DNA of 64,000 nucleotides from Candidatus Poribacteria bacterium (GTDB taxonomy: Bacteria > Poribacteria > WGA-4E > WGA-3G), in contig CBDANF010000002.1 of the NCBI GenBank assembly GCA_965197475.1, positions 1,152,001-1,216,000 of the forward strand. The letters are read 5' to 3'. The notes below the pieces were generated by a model. The model searched no databases, was not told the origin of the DNA, and saw only the letters and a list, made by a program, of their open reading frames with translations. Both the position numbers and the translations under genes were made by a program. Shown piece by piece: positions 5,564-14,936 of the stretch (positions are counted from its first letter, which is position 1; each line of letters starts with the position of its first letter).

Positions 5564-8548
5564 ATGAAAACCATCTTATTTACATTATTTTCAGTAATCT
5601 TATTGTGTGCTATCGTTTTTCATAGCAACGCTTATGACTACCACTGGGAAATAGACGAAACACCAGAAGGAGAGGAAAGTGTTACCGTAGTCGAACCTGT
5701 GCAAGTGACGCTATTAGATGAACAGGTAGAAATATCATCTCATAGTGCATCACTACGTCTGCTCCAAGTATATTCTGTTCACCTCAGATCAGAATGGGAA
5801 TCAGGATACGCACATAGACTATTCCTAACGTTTGAATCAATTCCGCAACAAAAGAATCCTCTTTATGAAAATCCAGCTCTACAACCGTCTATATGGAAAC
5901 TAAGTAACAGGCACATTCAAAATGACATAGAGATTGAATACTCGGGTGATACTAAAATTGTCACCATTGCCGCCGATGCTTTTACTTATGCGACCCCTTT
6001 GTTAGCCGAAATCGAAGGCGTGCGTGGTAGGTACTTCTCCAAACGACTCCACCGGGCAGTGGTTCGGTACGTAACAGACAATGGGGCGGATAGAAACACT
6101 ATTAAACGTATACTTCGAAAAAGGTACGCCGTTAGTATAGATGTCCCTGATTATATTGAACTTACAAAGTATACAACAGGTGAACATGCGGGTCGTTTCT
6201 CAACATTCAAAGATGAAGAACTAATGGCTCTCGTATCAATGTTTGAGGAGTTTCCGCAAGGCATGCTTAAAACACCCGGATTAAAATATTTGGTTAGACG
6301 TTTAGATGGAACACCACATCCGCTTTATCCGACCGCGCCTGCAGTCGCGTGGCCGAGTGCAGGCTACATTGAATTTATGGAAGCTGCTTTTATAGGAGGC
6401 AGTCCTGATTACATGCATCGCTTGATTCTGCATGAAAAGGCACATTTCCTATGGGCACACCTTTTTGACGAACAACTTAAACAGGATTGGATTGAACTCG
6501 GCGGCTGGTTTCGAAATCCGGACGACGCTGATGGGTGGTCTACGACTAAGCAAACAGAGTTTGTTTCGGCGTACGCACACGCCAAAAATCCTAATGAAGA
6601 TATGGCGGAGAGTATCAGTTTTTATATCATAAGACCTGACAAGCTACGTTCTCGTTCACCTGCTAAATACGAATTTATTCAAAATCGGATAATGCACGGC
6701 ACGCGCTACATCTCACAAATACGCGAGGACTTGACTTTTGTGGTCTACAATCTTTATCCTGATTATGTGTATCCTGGACGGATTGTAAGAGTTGACATAC
6801 AAGTGGATGGTGAACCCGAAGAAGATAAGATGATTACAGTCGAAATAGAAATTCATAGAGAGAGCCAATTGGATTCAGCGCGAGGTGTATTTATTAGACT
6901 TTTTAGTGAAAAAGGCACGTTCTTTGATGTTTGGCTTTCACCTATCAATGCACAAGGACAACGAATTTCTGCGGGGCATGTTTTCAGAGGTTCAATAACA
7001 TTAACACGCTATGCCGCAAATGGTTACTGGGGGCCAGACTCGGTTACTTTAAGTGACGTTTCTGGAAATCAGCGTCATGAATCTGCTCAAACAGATTTTG
7101 GGTGGAAACTCTATATCAACAATCCTCTTGCGGATTGTCAACTTCCAGCGTATGTTAAGGAATCAATGCGTCTTAGCTTATCTCAAGGGATTGAGGAGGA
7201 TAGAACTTTTCACATCATCACCGCACGCTGGCAGATTGTTGAGGATATAGGAATAAGAAATGTATCTGTTCATGTTAACGATGAAAGTAGGGGAACTTAT
7301 TCACACAACGCAAAGAGTTGGAGGAACCCTCAAGTTGCTGCAGGTGGAGGGAGAGGTTACAACCACGAAACAGGTGAAGCTACAGCAGAATTGATTATTC
7401 CTGATTACTACCAAAACGGTAATTATCTGGTCCACTATATTTCTATGGTAGATTTTGCTGGAAACAGAAGCGGTGTGTATTTCTCTAATTTCGACGGGGG
7501 ACTATGGGAAACAGACATAAAACTTGACGAACTACCTGCTTCAATTTATGTTCCGACAATTAATCCTGATAACGCGCCAGTTGTGCTTGATCTGAATAAT
7601 ATTACGATTAAAGCAGAACCGACAAAGCCTGAAGACCCCAATGGTGAAACGATAGTCAATATTACCTTTAGAGTAAAAGACAATATCAGCGGTTATTGGA
7701 AAGCTGATTTACGCCTGCGTGATCCTTTAGGTAATATTCACCAATTCACACACTTTCATTCTGAGCATTACAAAATCTATTTCCATGGAGACCCGAAGGT
7801 ATATGAAACTTACCACAAACAGATTATTTTGCCGGTTGGCAGTATTCCCGGCACATGGGGCCTTGCCGAGATGGTAGTTTTTGATAAGGCACATAATATC
7901 TTACGGGCAGACTTTACTGAAATCGTCCGTTTTGTGGTGGATGATACTATTTATACCCAATCTGATGTCAACGAAGACGGTGAAATTGACATTCGGGATC
8001 TGATTATTGTTGCCCAATCGTTTGAAGACTTCAACGAAAAAGCAGATGTCAACGGTGATGGCACTGTCAATATTTTAGATTTAGTGGAAGTTGCCAGCCA
8101 TCTTGGAGAAGAAGCGGCGGCACCAGCTGCATACAACCCAACTGCTGATCAAATCCAAAGTTGGATCACGCAAGCAATGCAAGAAGATAATGGCAGTCAT
8201 ATCTTCCGTAGAGGTATCCAGGTCCTACAATCTCTCTTACTTAGCCTGCGTCCTGAAACAACTGCTTTGCTGCCTAACTACCCAAATCCGTTTAACCCGG
8301 AAACGTGGATACCTTATCATTTGGCAAACGCCAGCGATGTGCAGATTGCCATTTACGATACGAGAGGGCGCATAGTTCGCACGTTAGCACTCGGGCATCA
8401 GCCCGCAGGCTATTACACAGACAGAGGTCGTGCAGCATATTGGGATGGTCGGAATAGCGTGGGGGAACGTATTGCAAGCGGTGTCTATTTTTATCAACTG
8501 CAGGCGGATTCTATTTCACAACTGCGTAAAATGGTTATTTTGAAATAG
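5564..8548 (+). CDS. Secreted zinc-metallopeptidase-like protein with dockerin/EF-hand repeat and C-terminal FlgD/T9SS-A-like sorting domain
   Basis: Signal peptide; LHEKAH with downstream FVSAYA..NPNEDMAE; DVNEDGEIDIRDL/DVNGDGTVNILDL; LLPNYPNPFNPETWIPY...SGVYFY..RKMVILK. Confidence 0.85.
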   Translation: MKTILFTLFSVILLCAIVFHSNAYDYHWEIDETPEGEESVTVVEPVQVTLLDEQVEISSHSASLRLLQVYSVHLRSEWESGYAHRLFLTFESIPQQKNPLYENPALQPSIWKLSNRHIQNDIEIEYSGDTKIVTIAADAFTYATPLLAEIEGVRGRYFSKRLHRAVVRYVTDNGADRNTIKRILRKRYAVSIDVPDYIELTKYTTGEHAGRFSTFKDEELMALVSMFEEFPQGMLKTPGLKYLVRRLDGTPHPLYPTAPAVAWPSAGYIEFMEAAFIGGSPDYMHRLILHEKAHFLWAHLFDEQLKQDWIELGGWFRNPDDADGWSTTKQTEFVSAYAHAKNPNEDMAESISFYIIRPDKLRSRSPAKYEFIQNRIMHGTRYISQIREDLTFVVYNLYPDYVYPGRIVRVDIQVDGEPEEDKMITVEIEIHRESQLDSARGVFIRLFSEKGTFFDVWLSPINAQGQRISAGHVFRGSITLTRYAANGYWGPDSVTLSDVSGNQRHESAQTDFGWKLYINNPLADCQLPAYVKESMRLSLSQGIEEDRTFHIITARWQIVEDIGIRNVSVHVNDESRGTYSHNAKSWRNPQVAAGGGRGYNHETGEATAELIIPDYYQNGNYLVHYISMVDFAGNRSGVYFSNFDGGLWETDIKLDELPASIYVPTINPDNAPVVLDLNNITIKAEPTKPEDPNGETIVNITFRVKDNISGYWKADLRLRDPLGNIHQFTHFHSEHYKIYFHGDPKVYETYHKQIILPVGSIPGTWGLAEMVVFDKAHNILRADFTEIVRFVVDDTIYTQSDVNEDGEIDIRDLIIVAQSFEDFNEKADVNGDGTVNILDLVEVASHLGEEAAAPAAYNPTADQIQSWITQAMQEDNGSHIFRRGIQVLQSLLLSLRPETTALLPNYPNPFNPETWIPYHLANASDVQIAIYDTRGRIVRTLALGHQPAGYYTDRGRAAYWDGRNSVGERIASGVYFYQLQADSISQLRKMVILK

Positions 8549-8673
8549 TATCAAATGACCATAGGATAGCTGGAAGGCTGATGTTCATTGGCTTCCCAGC
8601 GATCGTTGATGAGTGGGTTGCGTTGGGATCGCGAGCATCCTCTTTGAGAAATGATGCGTTTAGCGATAAACGT
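8548..8673 (-). ncRNA. Candidate ~125-nt structured non-coding RNA of the DUF1670 element
   Basis: Lies directly downstream of a near-consensus promoter; four consecutive stems (CGTTTA/TAAACG, GCATC/GATGC, GCGATC/GATCGC with 22-nt loop, GCTGGGAAG/CTTCCAGC); transcription not demonstrated. Confidence 0.4.
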
Positions 8674-8679
8674 GTCTAA

Positions 8680-8708
8680 AGTATAGCAAAACCGGTAGCG
8701 GTTGTCAA
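8680..8708 (-). promoter_or_regulatory. Near-consensus sigma70 promoter inside the DUF1670 element
   Basis: TTGACA (8708-8703), 17-bp spacer, TGn-TATACT (8685-8680); the spacer overlaps one arm of the inverted repeat GCAAAACCGG/CCGGTTTTGC (8686-8695, 8731-8740). Confidence 0.7.
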
Positions 8709-8775
8709 CCATATTTTCAAGGCACCTGCCCCGGTTTTGCGAAGTAAAGTTCGTCGGGAACATAGGATTAGGGTC

Positions 8776-9660
8776 TCATTGGGCTTCTCCTTGGTGAGTG
8801 GCTTCATCGTTTGAGTCTGAATTGGCAAGGTTTGCATCTATGGCTTGGAGTTGGGGCTGCGGAATCAGGTCCAGATATTGAGTGATAACGCGTTTAGAAA
8901 GTCGGGTGATCTGTGAGATTTTATCAATATCTGTGGTAGCGGTGCGAACGACTTTGACGCTCTCATAATCGCGAATGTATCTATCAACTGCCTCCTTAGA
9001 GTGTTTGGTCTTTGCGGCAATCCTGGGGGTGAGATGTCCTTGAAGATAGAGGGTTATGATCTCTTTCTTATGGGTAATAGCCCCCGATAAGTCATGGATA
9101 TTGCCACGGGTGGGCAAGAGTTCTCCAGTGGTTTTTTGCCATTCATTAACATAATCACAGACAACGGCATCGCAGACATTGAGCAAAACTGCCAAGTCGA
9201 GTTGTGTCAATAATGCCCCTTGGTCATAAGCTTGATGACACCAGCGGACCAAGCGATTGATCCGCAATTGCCGGGAGGTGAAACCGTTTCTAAAAGATTC
9301 AATATCCTCTGCGGCGAGGTAGGTCAGGATGATGGGTTTCATCCGAGTTTTGACGATGGACTTTCCTCTTTCTGGATGTTCATCAATAGGGACGGCCATC
9401 CAAACGAGTTGTCCATAACTTAGGAAACGCTCATCTGGGAGTTGATCACCGGTGGCGAGTTTTTCCAAGGGGAGGGTAATTACGAAATAGTCTTCAACGG
9501 TCTTGAGAATATCATCAACAATGGCGGTGGCAGTGACTTCGCCTTTGTCATACCCGTAGTCATTGAGAAAGCGATGGATAAGCAACTGTCGTAGGGATTT
9601 ATCGTTGATGCGTCTGAATTTCTTCTCGTTGATTTGCGTGCGTGTTAGAGGTTTGCTCAT
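8776..9660 (-). CDS. DUF1670-like protein B
   Basis: RLVRWCHQAYDQGALLTQLDLAVLL...PTRGNIHDLSGAITHKKEIITLYLQG...HSKEAVDRYIRDY, matching my recollection of the DUF1670 pattern; start overlaps the stop of protein A (ATGA). Confidence 0.78.
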   Translation of the reverse strand: MSKPLTRTQINEKKFRRINDKSLRQLLIHRFLNDYGYDKGEVTATAIVDDILKTVEDYFVITLPLEKLATGDQLPDERFLSYGQLVWMAVPIDEHPERGKSIVKTRMKPIILTYLAAEDIESFRNGFTSRQLRINRLVRWCHQAYDQGALLTQLDLAVLLNVCDAVVCDYVNEWQKTTGELLPTRGNIHDLSGAITHKKEIITLYLQGHLTPRIAAKTKHSKEAVDRYIRDYESVKVVRTATTDIDKISQITRLSKRVITQYLDLIPQPQLQAIDANLANSDSNDEATHQGEAQ

Positions 9661-10457
9661 GAGAGATCCTCCTTTTTTGTGTCCTCTGGTTCTGGGTGAA
9701 GGAGTTGGGTCATGCGATCGGTGTGTTGATATTCCTTGAACAGCGAGAGATACTCGCGTATCAACCGGTCAGAGAGATGAGAAATCAGGCGTATCTGAGC
9801 GTTAGGGAACCCTTGATGATGGAGCGTGGCAACTTGTGTGAAGTCCCTCAAGTAGCGGTAGACAGCCCGTTCGGAGTGGTTCGTCTTTTGCTCAATCTCG
9901 GTGAAGGTGTATGCTTTGAAGTACAGCTCGAGAATCTGCGTCTTATGAGACAGTCCCGGGCCCATGTCGTGTTTCGCCCCGCGCGTCATCACGAAATAGC
10001 CGGACTGCTTCAACGCTCGGATGTCGCGTTTGACGGTGGCAGGACTGGTGGTTAATAACACCGCCAAATCCTCATAACTCAGCAAGGCTTCTTGGTCATA
10101 AGCTTCTTGGGTCAATCGGAGGATCCGATGCCGTCTGAGTCCTGCGAGCCCATAAGTCGCTAAAACTTCAAGGTCGGCTTCAACATCGTTGAGTTTGAGT
10201 CGACAGGAGACTTTTTTCGCTAAAGCGATGTGTTTGCCTGCGGGTTCCTCAGCGGCGACTGCCTCGTAGCAGATTTGCCCTGATGTGAGTTGCACATCGG
10301 CATGTTGTTCAAAGTAGGTAGAAATCTGTTTATAGTAGGCTTCAGCAACGAGAGGCATGAGATTAAAGTCTGCTGAAATCTTCTGAATAATCGCGGCTCT
10401 GGCATTCTTGGATTCGAGCCGAGTGATACCGTAAGCGGTATCCTTCTTGCGGTTCAT
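9657..10457 (-). CDS. DUF1670-like protein A
   Basis: RILRLTQEAYDQEALLSYEDLAVLL...TRGAKHDMGPGLSHKTQILELY...HSERAVYRYLRDF; GGAGGT RBS before ATG 10457. Confidence 0.8.
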   Translation of the reverse strand: MNRKKDTAYGITRLESKNARAAIIQKISADFNLMPLVAEAYYKQISTYFEQHADVQLTSGQICYEAVAAEEPAGKHIALAKKVSCRLKLNDVEADLEVLATYGLAGLRRHRILRLTQEAYDQEALLSYEDLAVLLTTSPATVKRDIRALKQSGYFVMTRGAKHDMGPGLSHKTQILELYFKAYTFTEIEQKTNHSERAVYRYLRDFTQVATLHHQGFPNAQIRLISHLSDRLIREYLSLFKEYQHTDRMTQLLHPEPEDTKKEDLS

Positions 10458-10770
10458 ATTGACCTCCATGAATAGATTATCGGGGATCCGAGGACATCTA
10501 CTCGTTAGTTTAACGAATACTAATAGTATAACTCATGGGGTCATTTGATACAAACTATAAGTAAAGAAATAAGTTGAGTTGGGTTTCGCTGTGCTCTACC
10601 CCGCCAAATGCCATAGGCGTATTTGGCGTTGATTCCCTACACTTGATTTCTTATTTCGAACTCACGTTTACTATAGTTTGGACAATTTCATCCTATCAGG
10701 ACTTCGGACCAGGTGTTAAATATGGTTTGTAAGCACACTTGAGACAGCTGCTGGTGTCTATCAAAAAATC

Positions 10771-11636
10771 ATGGCAACACTTTATGATGTCTATTTCCCA
10801 TGCGTAGAAGCACTGCGTCCGGGGCCAAAAAGTCGTTGTCCTGATAGTGAAATTCTCACATTTGTTTGGGCTTCTTGAACTGACAGGAAGATAACGAACT
10901 CACAGGATACAACCTTATCAAGCACAACTCGGACATCTTTTCCCATATTTACCGGAACGCTCTCGCTTCAATCGAAGTATGCGAAACCTGTGCCACGCAA
11001 GCGAAAACTCCGGAGGATTTTGACACAGTTCTTACCAGATGATAGGGTTTTCATTGTAGATAGTTTTCCTATCCCGGTTTGCGATTTCAAGCGTGCTGCG
11101 ACTTCTACATCGTCTCTAAAATGTGCTGATGGCACCGGCACCTCGGCAACTTATGGAAAGTGTGCCACAAAAAGGCTTGACACTTTCTTAAGGTTTCGTG
11201 GTAGTCTGATAACCACCGTTTACGAACTATCTGTTGATTTGTGGTCGCCACTGCGGATACAGATGATCAAGAAATGCTCAGCTTACTATGTGAACGCGGC
11301 ACTTGTCCTATTATCCTTGGAGATAAAGGATATTTCCGAGTAACTTGAGACTGATTTACTTGAAACAGACAATGTGCGTCTTTTACCGACGCGGTGTCCA
11401 AATCAGAAAACACAATACCCAAAGCCGTTTCGGAAGTTGCACGGTAAAACGGTGGCGGATTGAGACGACTATCAGTCAACTCACAAATCAGTTTAATGTT
11501 TCACAAATACGCGCCCGCGCTCATTGAAGTTTTCAAACACGGTTGAGCAATAAGTTGATGGTTGGACATTAGGTGTTTTTTGAATCAATATTTAGGATGC
11601 CCGTTAATGGCACTCAAAGATGTCGTTTATACATAA
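10771..11636 (+). pseudogene. Decayed IS982-family transposase
   Basis: Fragments DSEILT, LPERSRFNR..RNL, IVDSFPIPVC, GDKGY (off-frame) and RWRIETTISQL...IRAR, split by stops and frameshifts. Confidence 0.75.
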
Positions 11637-11709
11637 ACAATTTCAAAAAAGATAGAAACATATTACAAAAAGTTAACTAACACAAGGCGTTATTTCTCAG
11701 GAGGTATTC

Positions 11710-13452
11710 ATGAATAATCCAAAATCTGGCTCAAAAAACCCTAAAAGCAAAACAAACACAAAAGAAAACGGCAATAACATATCTGATACAAACTTTATCC
11801 GACAAGCAATTGAAGAAGATATAGCATCAAATAGATTTGATGGGAGGGTGCATACCCGATTTCCTCCCGAACCGAGTGGATACCTCCATATCGGTCACGC
11901 CAAAGCCATCTGTATTAGTTTCGGCATCGCCGAAGACTATGGCGGACTTTACAACCTCCGATTCGACGACAGTAATCCGATCACAGAAGAGAGTGAATAC
12001 GTAGAAGCGATTAAACGGGATGTCCGTTGGCTCGGATTTAATTGGGAGGAACGCGAATTCCATGCCTCTGACTATTTCGAAACACTTTATGAATATGCTG
12101 TCAAACTGATAGAGAAAGGGAAAGCTTACGTCTGTGATCTGACACCAGAGGAAACGCGCACTTATCGTGGCACTTTAGTGACAGCCGGCAAAGATAGTCC
12201 CTACCGAAACCGTTCTATTGAAGAAAATCTAACGTTGTTCCGTGGGATGTGCGATGGTAAATTTTCCGACGGTTCTCGTACTCTCCGCGCCAAAATTGAT
12301 ATGACAAGTCCGAATTTAAATATGCGCGACCCTGTGATGTATCGTGTTCTCCACACCCCACACTATCGACATGGGACCAATTGGTGCATCTATCCTACCT
12401 ACGATTTCACACATGGACAATCCGATTCGATCGAAGGCGTTACACATTCCTTATGTGACGTTCAGTTTGAAGATCATCGTCCGTTATATGACTGGTTTTT
12501 GGAATCGTTGGAAATTTACTCACCTCGACAGATTGAATTTGCTCGACTGAACCTTACCTACACTATACTTGGTAAGCGGAAACTCAAAATCCTCGTTGAA
12601 CAAGGACACGTCAAAGGGTGGGACGATCCGAGACTACCCACACTTGCGGGTATGCGTCGTCGCGGTTATACCCCTGAATCTATTCGAGATTTTTGCAACC
12701 GCATTGGTGTGTCGAAAGCCAATAATCTCATTGAGATCGGACAACTTGAATACTCTATCCGCGATGATCTGAATCGTCGTGCGCCTCGTGTGATGGCTGT
12801 GCTGAATCCGGTCAAAGTTACTATTGATAACTATCCAGAAGGACAAGTTGAGATGCTTGATGCTGACAATAACCCGGAAGATGAAAACGCAGGGGCAAGG
12901 ACAATCCCTTTCTCACGAGAAATCTACATTGAACGTGAAGATTTTATGGAAGATCCGCCACGAAAATTTTATAGACTTGCCCCCGGACGAGAGGTTCGGC
13001 TTAAACATGCATACTATATCACCTGCGACCACGTTGTTAAAGATGAAAACACTGGTGAAATCGTTGATATCCACTGCACTTATGATCCAAAAACTCGTGG
13101 TGGTTGGTCTGATGACGGACGGAGGGTACAAGGCACACTGCACTGGGTTTCTGCTGAACATGCTGTTGATGCTGAGGTGCGCCTATACGGTTCGCTCTTT
13201 ACAGAGCGCGAACCGGAAAACGTAGCGGATGGCACCGATTGGATACAATTCCTCAATCCGAATTCTTTAGAGATTCTAAATAATTGCAAGGTTGAACCGA
13301 GTCTTGTTGAGGCAATGCCTGAAAGTCGATATCAGTTCCTACGGATGGGATATTTTTGCGTTGATCCAGACACAACACCAGAAAAATCGGTATTCAATCG
13401 TACAGTACCGCTGCGGGATAGCTGGGCAAAAATTCAGAAAGGACAGAAATGA
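11710..13452 (+). CDS. glnS: Glutamine--tRNA ligase
   Basis: [52 protein letters not shown] and [11 protein letters not shown] motifs. Confidence 0.96.
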
Positions 13453-14936
13453 ACAAAATACCTATTCCAAATGATCAAGTCAGGGTTCGTATGGCACCCT
13501 CTCCAACCGGTTTCTTACATATCGGTGGTGCGAGGACAGCACTATTCAATTGGGTGTTCGCCAAACACCACAACGGCAAATTCATCTTACGGATTGATGA
13601 TACAGATAAGGCGCGTTCCACAGACGAATCTATGCATGAAATCTATACGGCAATGAAGTGGTTAGGTCTTGAGTGGGACGAAGGCGGTGATAAAGGTGGA
13701 ACCTACGGACCTTACGTGCAATCCGAACGGAAAGCCATCTACGAAAAATACGTTACGCAGCTGCTTGAAAACAGCAATGCATACCACTGCTATTGTACCC
13801 CCGAAGAATTAGAAGACATCCGCACAGAAGCGCGCACCGCGAAATCTACACGATCCTACGACGGACGGTGCAAACACCTTACATCAGAAAACATTGAACG
13901 TTATATGGCAGAAGGCAGAAAACCGACCGTCCGTATAAAAATGCCTGACGCACCAATCCGTGTTGACGACCTTATTCTCGGTTCACGCGACATTGATCCC
14001 GCCACCTTAGAGGATGAAGTGATTGTCCGTTCAAACGGCATGCCGAATTACAATCTCACCTCTATTATAGACGATGTAGAAATGCAAATTACGCATGTAA
14101 TCAGAGGAACAGAACACCTCAACAACACACCGAAACAGATTGCAATTGCGAATGCACTCGGTTTGAATCTGCCACAATTCGCACATATTCCGCTGGTGCT
14201 TGATGATACCGGTAGAAAACTGAGTAAACGTCATCACGGTGACCTTGTCGCTGTCAACCGATACCGTGAGCAAGGGTATCTACCCGAAGCGATGCTGAAC
14301 TTCGTTGCAAGACTCGGTTGGTCTTACGACGATAAACAGGAAATCTTCTCTGTTGATGAACTTATAGATAAATTTGACCTCGCACGGGTTGGCAAAAGCG
14401 GTAGTGTGTTTGATATTAAGAAGTTGGAGTGGCTCAACTCCCACTATATTAACCAACTTGATGTGGCAGCACGGACAGACGCGGTGATACCTTTCTGGGA
14501 ACAAGAAGGTTTAGTGGATTCCACGTCAAAGCGAGACTGGCTTGAGAAGATTGTGGAAGCCGTGGGTGAACGTCTTACAACGTTTCAAGACATCGTTCCA
14601 CAAACTCGTTATTTCTTTACCGATGATTTTGAGTATGAGTCGAAAGCGGTCAAGAAATGGTGGGAAGGTTCAGACGAAAAGAAGCAAAAAACTTGTGAGA
14701 TTCTGACAAATCTCGGACAGATTTTGGAAGAAGTTTCTGCGTTTGATCTCGAAACGGTAGAAACTGCTATTTGGAAATACACAGATGAAAACGACATCAA
14801 ACGCGTCGCTGCAATGCAGGCAATGCGGATTGCGCTGACGGAAACATCGTTCGGTCCAAGCCTTTTTGATATTGTTATCCTGCTCGGCAAAGACGAGGTT
14901 TTGAAGCGAATTCAAAAGGCGATAACGTATTTATAG
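13449..14936 (+). CDS. gltX: Glutamate--tRNA ligase
   Basis: [25 protein letters not shown] and KLSKRH motifs. Confidence 0.96.

Follow-up and report, generated by a model that had tools for sequence, protein, structure and literature searches.

A two-gene DUF1670 insertion sequence found at the ends of secreted-protein genes and in REP-like loops

Positions 8545–10558 of the window, the 64,000-nt stretch of Candidatus Poribacteria DNA analysed here, are a genuine, mobile and recently active 2-kb insertion sequence. It carries two adjacent genes, orfA and orfB, whose products (A and B) are clear members of PF07900 (DUF1670), a Pfam family without functional annotation. We consider it probable, at roughly 0.6, that this insertion sequence is autonomous and belongs to an uncatalogued family (as judged from homologue names and the literature), and that its A/B pair performs, or at least directs, site-specific transposition; we infer that catalysis, too, lies with A and B. 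The window copy has the following features.

5564–8548, plus strand: target gene, encoding a 994-aa secreted protein (ORF; Pfam Dockerin_1, FlgD_ig, Por_Secre_tail)
8543–8544: left copy of the AA duplication, bases 1 and 2 of the target's final Lys codon
8545–10558: element core, 2,014 bp, tips 5'-ATAG ... CTAT-3' (from the rise and fall of identity at the edges and from comparing occupied and empty sites)
8548–8560: left inverted repeat, 13 bp, GTATCAAATGACC, starting 3 nt inside the left tip
8549–8775: left non-coding region, downstream of orfB; alignable across all subfamilies and the most diverged part of the element
8680–8708, minus strand: outward-facing promoter-like site, TTGACA-17 nt-TATACT preceded by TG, aimed at the left tip, with an expected start near 8673
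8776–9660, minus strand: orfB, B-type DUF1670 protein, 294 aa; its ATG overlaps the orfA stop (ATGA)
9657–10457, minus strand: orfA, A-type DUF1670 protein, 266 aa; likely start ATG at 10457, preceded by GGAGG
10525–10553, minus strand: possible orfA promoter, TTGTAT-17 nt-TATACT with a weak -35, overlapping the right repeat; read by eye
10539–10551: right inverted repeat, 13 bp, GGTCATTTGATAC, ending 7 nt inside the right tip
10559–10560: right copy of the AA duplication (from the 19-copy alignment, the empty site and a survey of AA in 54 copies)
10561–10564, plus strand: the target's native third Lys base (G) and native stop TAA, moved 2 kb by the insertion

A mobile element with a 2-bp target duplication

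The original prediction set the borders at 8548 and 10551, the outer limits of a perfect 13-bp inverted repeat. The repeat is present at both positions, but an alignment of 19 copies places the true tips further out, at 8545 and 10558. The conserved block in that alignment runs from AAATAG (8543) through CTATAA (10560), with identity among copies rising from 55–75% to 94–100% at the left edge and dropping again at the right edge. Because the distance from repeat to tip is 3 nt at the left and 7 nt at the right, the ends are asymmetric. The core is bracketed by AA in 52 of 54 copies, a 2-bp duplication that the original prediction had not seen, and the insertion comprises the 2,014-bp core plus one additional AA.

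In the window, the element adjoins the stop codon of the upstream gene, as had been noticed at the outset. At its C-terminus the protein encoded there carries a type IX secretion sorting domain (about 8248–8545), and nucleotides 8545–8548, which complete the last Lys codon and form the TAG stop, come from the element. The native G TAA is found on the element's right side, which gives an empty site of ...TTG AAG TAA, with the junction after AA. The empty site first proposed (TTGAAATA joined to AAAC, restoring TAA) was wrong on this point.

The host genome (G000) contains 19 copies and one deletion derivative, with identical ends in different flanks. Three copies are 100% identical, ten are mutually 99.4–100% identical in unrelated flanks, and the right flank is unrelated to that of the window copy in 17 of the 18 others. 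Both ORFs are full-length in 14 of 18 complete cores, and deletion derivatives retain both ends. Comparison with a copy other than the window's revealed an orthologous empty site in a sister genome (G003), where the right flank is 100% identical over 300 bp and the occupied copy adds the 2,014-bp core and AA. This comparison proves the outer tips, confirms the corrected form of the empty site and supplies an empty allele of the kind that the original prediction had asked for. No circle junction or excision product was seen in the assembled contigs of public runs. Taken together, near-identical copies in unrelated flanks, the empty site, deletion derivatives, a patchy distribution and distant gene pairs with inverted repeats strongly support the discrete mobile element that had been proposed.

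Insertion at gene ends and in REP-like loops

Eighteen of the 20 host-genome copies, derivative included, adjoin the end of a type IX secretion sorting domain, and 16 of the 51 sorting-domain ORF ends in that genome (about a third) are occupied. Across 22 genomes of the phylum we located 54 copies: 39 at sorting-domain ends, 11 in the loops of REP-like palindromes and 4 elsewhere. In this genus the target AA opens the final Lys codon of genes that end in ...R-K-M-L-I-x-K-stop. Native unoccupied ends use either Lys codon (AAG 17, AAA 13) and any stop (TAA 19, TAG 14, TGA 2). Occupied sites always read AAA TAG on the left and, on the right, G or A followed by TAA, TAG or TGA in the proportions of unoccupied ends. 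Since the left tip supplies A plus TAG, rebuilding the Lys codon and the stop, the host reading frame stays intact and the protein is unchanged. This amounts to an unusual, harmless landing within the last codon of secreted-protein genes.

A related subfamily, 75–86% identical in nucleotides over most of the coding part, instead targets the AA of a REP-like palindrome's loop. Of REPs that are empty and match the predicted sequence, genome G035 has 40, G075 has 40 and G096 has 208. Despite its 208 REPs, the three copies examined of the five in G096 all lie at gene ends, which argues that specificity is encoded by the element.

The A and B proteins are conserved and of predicted helix-turn-helix type

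As predicted, the element encodes two coupled, paralogous DUF1670 proteins, from minus-strand ORFs that overlap at ATGA. The PF07900 profile gives 208.1 bits for orfB and 205.1 bits for orfA (E = 1.5e-61 and 1.1e-60; cut-off 25 bits), and A and B share 34% protein identity; the host genome has 39 PF07900 matches. The ORF list starts orfA 12 nt further upstream (270 aa); most homologues have 264–266 aa. Of all reading frames, A and B alone stay open throughout the 10 subfamily representatives checked, and both genes are under strong purifying selection (dN/dS 0.07–0.11 for each, in seven of seven pairs). One host-genome copy carries A and B fused. Natural fusions comprise two or three DUF1670 units and no other domain, and the 10 long family members have solely DUF1670 and helix-turn-helix domains.

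Searches of A and B against Pfam, NCBIfam, PHROGs and PADLOC returned only DUF1670 and helix-turn-helix families and no catalytic domain. The claim that the element lacks a recognisable transposase holds for the DDE, HUH, serine, tyrosine and DEDD domains sought in Pfam and NCBIfam. Structure models (pLDDT 88 and 87) are helical with one beta-hairpin, and both proteins are predicted to consist of an N-terminal helical part, the beta-hairpin, a winged helix and a second helix-turn-helix. Foldseek comparison of both models with the PDB gave no matches at E <= 0.001, the best weak ones being winged-helix or paired-type DNA binders, and a profile search of PDB sequences gave nothing below E = 0.003. 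Most invariant residues fall in motifs that we take to be typical of DeoR/BirA-type winged helices and resolvase-type helix-turn-helix domains, and so are not necessarily catalytic. A full-text literature search found no paper on DUF1670 or PF07900, and none of the 120 listed homologues is named a transposase.

Helix-turn-helix bundles with no known catalytic fold, whose conserved residues fit DNA-binding motifs, would also suit a pair of mere adaptors. A and B would then recognise ends and target or regulate, while the DNA is broken and joined by an enzyme of the host or of another element, such as a Xer-type tyrosine recombinase or a trans-acting DDE transposase. Xer-type recombinases exist in both bacteria and archaea, as does the DUF1670 family. 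We nevertheless regard this explanation as rather unlikely. A genome-wide scan of the host's 5.7 Mb for the 13-mer, allowing up to one mismatch, found 41 occurrences, 40 of which are the two ends of 20 copies; the repeat is far from a chance one, and the sequence was absent from every other element. Nor is there a fusion to a catalytic gene among the 10 long members or a constant neighbour at 38 distant loci, where the pair stands alone, and gene ends and REP loops differ from chromosome dimer-resolution sites.

The left non-coding region contains a conserved outward promoter-like site

The left non-coding region has indels that are not in multiples of three. Between the gene-end and REP subfamilies it is 47–63% identical, as compared with 75–86% in most coding windows. 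Its promoter-like site scored 11 of 12 matches in a promoter scan. Among 36 distinct sequences the T, A, A and T of the -10 are invariant and its other two positions and the upstream G are at least 90% conserved, and the -35 is TTGACA, TTGGCA or TTGGAA in eight of nine representatives. The putative orfA promoter at 10525–10553, identified by eye, was missing from the scan.

An alternative is that a non-coding RNA transcribed from this conserved site guides targeting, and perhaps catalysis, in the manner of the IS110-family bridge RNA, with A and B as its protein partners. The conservation of the site, the divergence of the region between subfamilies with different targets, and the gene-end preference of the examined G096 copies, would agree with such a guide. 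Structure searches lent it no support, at low power since the sequences are closely related: an Rfam search of the region had no match at E <= 1, RNAalifold yielded no consensus fold (-0.24 kcal/mol, 3 pairs), and the one visible 13-bp stem, 80% paired with no compensatory pairs, was not above shuffles. By eye, complementarity to either target was not convincing, and a promoter reading across a junction would explain the outward site equally well. We think a guide RNA quite improbable.

DUF1670 pairs are widespread and patchily distributed

The distribution is patchy: 11 of 41 relatives carry the family, as do 40 of 176 genomes from the phylum, in every case as gene pairs. More broadly, DUF1670 matches comprise 1,227 cluster representatives at 50% identity, from bacteria and archaea. 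We examined 48 loci from distant bacterial and archaeal phyla, of which 38 have two adjacent genes. The first gene of these pairs is A-like in 38 of 38 and the second B-like in 35 of 38, with a 4-nt overlap in 28 of 38; the A-then-B order is, by this comparison of sequences, ancient. Inverted repeats around DUF1670 pairs, which the original prediction had proposed to look for in other taxa, reached a score of at least 13 in 15 of 40 testable distant loci and in 0 of 40 in each of two controls. In Halanaerobium congolense, three copies have identical ends and different flanks. Other cultured carriers are Pontiella sulfatireligans and Methanosarcina acetivorans, the latter being the positive control genome.

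It is very hard to believe that the repeats are a regulator pair copied along with duplicating secreted-protein genes, or assembly artefacts: although the left flanks have a protein domain in common, copy C3:845182 and the window copy have 5 kb of right flank in common at 99–100%, and the genome's estimated contamination is 6.97%, this reading is refuted by left flanks only 55–75% identical against 92–100% for the element, unrelated right flanks in nearly all other copies and the clean orthologous empty site in G003, and the same element also occurs in REP loops and distant phyla.

A proposed mechanism

An A/B heteromer would bind both ends of the element; the unequal distances of the 13-bp repeat from the tips fit two different subunits. 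The heteromer would then pair the ends, cut and join them, either staggered by 2 bp or through a 2-bp crossover, and pick the target. The outward promoter may read across the joined left-right junction into orfA, so that a circular or tandem intermediate would express A/B more strongly.

That A and B form a heteromeric transposase or recombinase, as the original prediction held, is what we infer. Supporting it are their status as the sole conserved frames, purifying selection, the ancient gene order, A-B fusions and the asymmetric ends; it is weakened by helix-turn-helix bundles without a significant match to a solved fold and by conserved residues largely of DNA-binding type. The weakest step is that A and B do the DNA chemistry themselves, beyond merely directing it. 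In its full form the proposal is tentative, and we put it at somewhat under an even chance: the heteromer itself would represent a new structural class of DNA transposase or site-specific recombinase, composed solely of helix-turn-helix-type modules and a beta-hairpin, unrelated to DDE, DEDD, HUH, serine, tyrosine and Cas1 enzymes, carrying out 2-bp staggered exchange at AA with an element-encoded, evolvable target specificity in many bacterial and archaeal phyla.

As neither protein has a known DNA-cutting fold, the element may move by a type of enzyme not yet described. If A and B are the enzymes, they would represent a new chemistry or fold for moving DNA in small proteins (about 270 and 290 aa), with precise and apparently re-targetable insertion, a matter of mechanistic interest and perhaps of practical use as a tool. 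Because cultured carriers exist, the question can be put to a direct test.

Comparison with known systems

IS110/IS1111 elements encode a DEDD transposase and a bridge RNA, and some members target REP or attC palindromes. Our element resembles them in its short inverted repeats that are subterminal rather than terminal, its orientation-specific insertion in repeated conserved sequences, REP hairpin loops included, its little or no target duplication and a non-coding region with its own promoter beside one end. It differs in having two paralogous helix-turn-helix proteins instead of one transposase and no DEDD/RuvC-like domain or fold (Pfam, NCBIfam, Foldseek), so we reject membership; a structured guide RNA is likewise unsupported by Rfam, consensus folding and covariation, at low power.

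IS630/Tc1-mariner elements have a TA target duplication and a DDE/RNase H-like catalytic domain. Like our element they duplicate two base pairs of fixed sequence and have short inverted repeats and a bipartite helix-turn-helix DNA-binding architecture; A and B have weak sub-threshold Pfam matches to HTH_23, HTH_28 and HTH_29, and their models have non-significant Foldseek matches to Pax and Tc3 DNA-binding domains. In contrast, the dinucleotide here is AA and not TA, the repeats lie off the tips, regional target specificity is strong, and neither protein has a DDE/RNase H-like catalytic domain. A DDE transposon of any kind (IS630/Tc1-mariner, IS4/IS5 or others) was rejected, as Pfam and NCBIfam gave no DDE family and Foldseek no match at E <= 0.001.

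Like IS607-type and other serine-recombinase elements, this one has a 2-bp core common to both junctions, such as a 2-bp staggered crossover leaves, and helix-turn-helix domains for site recognition. A and B lack the resolvase catalytic domain, however: there was no Resolvase family match, and the resolvases that appeared in Foldseek had E values of 0.6–0.8, gamma-delta resolvase being non-significant at 0.6, so a serine recombinase of the IS607 or Tn3 resolvase type was rejected. Also rejected, for absence of their catalytic domains in Pfam, NCBIfam and Foldseek, were IS200/IS605 and IS91 (HUH/Y1 or Y2 endonuclease) and tyrosine recombinase elements (Phage_integrase type).

IS1202-subclass elements target XerCD sites (bioRxiv 10.1101/2022.12.17.520857). 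They are likewise insertion sequences repeatedly adjoining one kind of short conserved site, and differ from ours in transposase family and target. The element has what insertion sequences have in general, namely the same ends in unrelated flanks and an empty allele, seen at the G003 site and in the empty REPs. PF07900, with no function annotated, thereby gains a functional context as the cargo of a compact insertion sequence.

Two coupled DUF1670 genes between inverted repeats

A perfect 13-bp inverted repeat, GTATCAAATGACC, lies at 8548-8560 in the window sequence, with its complement at 10539-10551, and between the two copies are two minus-strand ORFs, orfA and orfB. The features of the region are as follows.

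Features of the element and its surroundings in the window
5564-8548, plus strand: upstream gene, encoding a dockerin and, at 8248-8545, a type IX secretion sorting domain at the C terminus
8543-8544 and 10559-10560: AA copies flanking the core
8545-10558: element core, 2,014 bp (from the comparison of L011 with G003, carried to window coordinates)
8708-8680, minus strand: promoter-like site, TTGACA, 17 nt, then TATACT with TG before it; 11 of 12 positions match; directed to the left tip
9660 to 8776, minus strand: orfB, ORF between the repeats
10469/10457 to 9657, minus strand: orfA, ORF between the repeats
10561-10564: displaced native G+TAA, right of the element

The orfA stop is overlapped by the orfB ATG (ATGA), and the two proteins, A and B, share 34% identity across 191 residues, in agreement with the original prediction of two translationally coupled paralogs. 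Both also match PF07900 (DUF1670) in Pfam, as had been proposed (E values of 1.1e-60 and 1.5e-61). Their other Pfam matches are to helix-turn-helix families only and are marginal or sub-threshold, and neither ORF has an NCBIfam match above cut-offs. Because the second ATG of orfA (10457) has GGAGG upstream and its homologs are mostly 264-266 aa long, we take the product to be 266 aa. A third conserved ORF was not found, as no third frame is open across 10 of 10 subfamily representatives; judged by its open frames, the element is shown to have only two conserved genes.

A plus-strand open frame (9663-10052, 130 aa from stop to stop) runs antisense to orfA, and similar frames of 75-140 aa with shifted ends occur at a comparable position in other subfamilies; it probably arises as a by-product of the coding strand. 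At 10733-11692, some 170 bp away from the element, lies a repeat of ~960 bp with broken frames and many copies in related genomes. One of its fragments has a weak, sub-threshold match to DDE_Tnp_1 (E = 0.0047), and the repeat is probably the decayed remnant of an IS4/IS5-type IS.

The element enters a lysine codon and rebuilds a gene end

The window's own genome (5.70 Mb in 3 contigs; completeness 92.7%, contamination 6.97%) carries 19 full or nearly full copies of the element and one internally deleted copy. In a sliding identity profile of these copies, the left flank (8250-8547) is only ~55-75% identical between copies, identity rises to 94-100% at ~8543, and it drops away past ~10564. At the left junction, 19 of 19 aligned copies read ...NNN AAA TAG TATC..., and at the right junction they read ...GATACAAACTATAA, next a G or A and one of the stops TAA, TAG and TGA, beyond which the sequence is unrelated. 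In the same genome, 35 unoccupied sorting-domain gene ends most often have AAG (17) or AAA (13) as the last codon, and have TAA (19), TAG (14) or TGA (2) as the stop. Since the mix of bases and stops following the element on its right matches that of these unoccupied ends, whereas the left is invariably AAA TAG, the native third lysine base and stop lie to the right. As read from these junctions, the entry point is after the first two As of the lysine codon, and the host lysine and stop codons are shown to be rebuilt by the element.

An orthologous empty site, a check called for by the original prediction, was found for one copy, L011 (C3:1504087-1506376), whose two flanks adjoin in the sister genome G003. 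There the empty site reads ...ATACGAAAGTAAATTG..., and the occupied site reads ...ATACGAA A|ATAG, the 2,014-bp core, and CTAT|AA GTAAATTG...; the right flanks match at 100% over 300 bp, the left flanks at 89%. By this comparison, what was inserted is the 2,014-bp core, ATAG...CTAT, together with another copy of AA. The inverted repeats lie where they were originally placed, but the boundaries of 8548-10551 drawn from them do not hold, the core being 8545-10558. The empty site then envisaged, in which joining the flanks restores TAA, is likewise wrong, as shown by the native G+TAA to the right of the window copy and by the G003 site. A paralog in the window's genome (C3, minus strand, ending at 875856) terminates in ATGGTTATTTTGAAG TAA, which we take to be the reading of the window's gene without the element. 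For two other copies, L003 and L004, flanks were non-syntenic in five relatives and only a half-site was recovered.

Identical copies mark recent movement

The window copy is 100% identical across 2,014 bp to two further copies in the same genome, one of which (C3:49937-52250) lies at a different gene with unrelated flanks; the expected copies with the same ends in different surroundings therefore exist. Ten copies form a second group, 99.4-100% identical among themselves, and the groups differ by 3-7%. Both ORFs are full length in 14 of 18 complete cores, and in L005 (C3:685908-688200) A and B are fused in a single frame of 564 aa, an arrangement that mirrors natural two-unit DUF1670 proteins elsewhere.

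Allowing at most one mismatch, the 13-mer of the ends occurs at 41 sites in this genome, 40 of which are accounted for by the two ends of each of the 20 copies, which leaves no other, larger element with the same ends; a search of the genome for such a "master" element found none. Contigs assembled from public runs join 8574 or 8696 to 10524, forming miniature derivatives that have both ends, and the internally deleted genomic copy (C3:94056-94563) also keeps both. All these deleted forms, genomic and from run contigs, may be non-autonomous. None of the public-run contigs links the window's own flanks across the element, and a 2,162-bp skip in run X6 was rejected as an empty window locus, being a paralogous gene end. 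No left-right circle junction was present among the joints listed from these contigs (15 of 32). Contigs from RNA libraries cover the element and not 6500-7900, which copy number or DNA carry-over may explain.

Spread by a homing endonuclease was rejected: left flanks at the junctions are only 55-75% identical and right flanks are unrelated, leaving no co-conversion tract.

Two copies differ in extent. One in another genome of the phylum (L127, G080 C1:344400-350200) is 3,138 bp long, ~1.1 kb above the usual length, and may hold a nested insertion. At C3:845182-850147, the window's genome repeats 8540-13500 at 99-100% identity, taking in the element and 3 kb of right flank, with the decayed IS and a glutaminyl-tRNA synthetase-like gene, next to a different left flank. 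Segmental duplication or recombination between copies could account for this, as could, given the estimated 6.97% contamination, redundancy in the assembly.

Subfamilies of the element choose between two repeated targets

A sorting-domain coding end adjoins 18 of the 20 insertions in the window's genome. Sixteen of these lie in ORFs no shorter than 120 aa, among 51 such ORF ends found with a profile made from the element flanks, and two are in decayed remnants; the remaining two insertions lie in other sequence, still ending ...[C/T]T[G/T]AA. The 51 ORFs share a sorting-domain subfamily end, ...R-K-M-L-I-x-K-stop, and about one third are occupied by the element. Across the phylum, 54 copies were compared from 22 genomes: 39 follow ...[R/Q/K][K/R/Q][M/L]x[I/L/V/T/M]xK, 11 occupy the loop of a palindrome whose arms are 13 nt long (GAAACCGAGTTTT / AAAACTCGGTTTC), and four are at other sites. 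AA is present on both sides in 52 of the 54, including the window copy, contrary to the original prediction of no target-site duplication. These junctions show that the element inserts precisely and in an orientation-specific way at AA, which is then present to its left and right.

The palindrome is a REP-like repeat with a loop of ~6 nt, and the predicted empty site is exactly its commonest form. G096 has 208 intact REPs (4-9-nt loop), G035 and G075 have 40 each, and there are none in G148 or the window's genome; some cluster within a few kb (e.g. G035 C1:1893186-1897595). G096 has the most REPs, yet three of three examined among its five element copies are at gene ends, so the choice of target depends on the element subfamily rather than on the sites available in the genome. 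The gene-end and REP subfamilies are 75-86% identical in nucleotide sequence over most coding windows but only 47-63% identical in part of the left non-coding region. The choice between the two kinds of repeated target is shown to be element-encoded.

A conserved promoter-like site points to the left tip

Across 36 distinct left ends, all six positions of the -10 of the promoter-like site are invariant or at least 90% conserved, and the -35 is kept in eight of nine subfamily representatives. Several copy-out-paste-in insertion sequences have junction-dependent promoters, and the site here would read over a joined left-right junction into orfA. In an integrated element it would run antisense into the host gene, which for the occupied sorting-domain genes would mean antisense reading from the element's outward site and may affect how these secreted proteins are expressed. 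The alternative that the left non-coding end yields a guide RNA found no support: that region had no match in Rfam, RNAalifold returned no consensus structure, and the one visible 13-bp stem had no compensatory changes, tests of limited power because the sequences are closely related.

The A-B pair is widespread and often flanked by inverted repeats

Eleven of 41 close relatives carry DUF1670 pairs; at E <= 1e-20, so do 40 of 176 genomes across the phylum, with one to at least 15 matches per genome. A search of 1.84 billion cluster representatives gave 1,227 matches at E <= 0.001 and 598 at E <= 1e-10, among them proteins of ~500-540 aa with two DUF1670 stretches and of ~930-950 aa with three. 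Ten long members examined contain only DUF1670 and helix-turn-helix domains, except for one with an EamA match that is probably a gene-call run-on. Contigs of ~2 kb carry many of the homologs, which is what a repeat that interrupts assembly should produce, and orfA had no match in a plasmid collection.

A scan of one genome per species, with a four-sequence alignment as query, gave 49 loci. The taxa represented, bacterial and archaeal, include Saganbacteria, Chloroflexota, Bacteroidota, Desulfuromonadaceae, Verrucomicrobiota, Planctomycetota, Lentisphaerota, Halanaerobium, Pontiella, Methanoperedens, Methanobacteriota, Methanotrichaceae and Altiarchaeota, among others. Among 48 loci with a scorable ORF (45 from the scan and three added), 38 have two adjacent same-strand genes and two have fused genes. 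The upstream gene is A-like in all 38 paired loci and the downstream gene B-like in 35, with a 4-nt overlap in 28. Inverted repeats (score at least 13, span ~1.65-2.0 kb) flank the pair at 15 of 40 testable loci, against 0 of 40 in each of two composition-matched controls, so that the repeat-flanked pairs anticipated in other taxa are indeed present. The longest repeat, of 43 bp, is in Pontiella sulfatireligans, and Halanaerobium congolense has three copies that share their ends but lie in different flanks.

A and B resemble DNA-binding proteins and may move the element

Both proteins have dN/dS values of 0.07-0.11 in seven of seven pairs compared. AlphaFold gave confident models (A, pLDDT 88.2 and pTM 0.64; B, pLDDT 86.6 and pTM 0.63), each combining three helices at the N terminus with a beta-hairpin, a long helix, a winged helix, a second helix-turn-helix and further helices at the C terminus. 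Foldseek found no match to either model in the PDB at E <= 0.001, the best weak matches being MntR, SelB, Pax, and the Tc3 and resolvase DNA-binding domains, and a profile search of PDB sequences gave nothing below E = 0.003. The best look-alikes in the ESM Atlas, small archaeal helix-turn-helix proteins at 0.76-0.80, are below the level that counts; PHROGs gave weak regulator-type matches only, and PADLOC gave no match to A or B. Prediction of the A-B complex gave a score of 0.18, the mark being 0.32, a result that speaks neither for nor against binding.

Residues invariant across phyla are D95, R108, Q122, L126, E129, D130, R159, D164, G166, H171, H194 and Y202 in A (266-aa numbering) and R139, P183, D190, H197, K198 and Y228 in B. 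Most fall inside the motifs EDLA..S..TI.RD and HS..SI.RY, which we take to be characteristic of winged helices of the DeoR/BirA type and helix-turn-helix motifs of the resolvase type. That A and B are adaptors that recruit another enzyme is, in our estimate, rather unlikely. The best candidates for residues acting beyond DNA binding would be a shared loop motif, T-R-G...D-x-G...[S/T]-H-K, and the A-specific D95, R108 and Q122 of the long helix. We favor, with a probability of roughly 0.6, the autonomous reading, in which A and B would themselves carry the active site for the element's movement. The ancient fixed order of the genes, their translational coupling, the natural fusions and the asymmetry of the ends, where the 13-bp repeat lies 3 nt inside one tip but 7 nt inside the other, suggest that A and B act together. 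They would bind both ends, pair them, and exchange strands by a 2-bp stagger or a 2-bp crossover. That a categorically new DNA-moving enzyme is concealed here is a possibility we raise tentatively.

Comparison with known systems

A full-text search returned no paper on DUF1670 or PF07900, a search on insertion sequences and transposases of sponge symbionts found nothing relevant by title or opening of the abstract, and another found no published insertion sequence that targets type IX secretion C-terminal-domain sites. A search on new insertion-sequence families with a helix-turn-helix led only to work on IS1202. None among the homologs listed carries a transposase name. Judged from this literature search and the homolog names, we rate the element as an insertion sequence of an uncatalogued family. 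It differs from the IS110/IS1111, IS630/Tc1 and serine-recombinase families in the protein feature that defines each, but in behavior it is closest to IS110/IS1111, sharing subterminal repeats and insertion into repeated palindromes, and in footprint it is closest to an IS630/Tc1 or serine-recombinase element, with a fixed 2-bp motif at both junctions.
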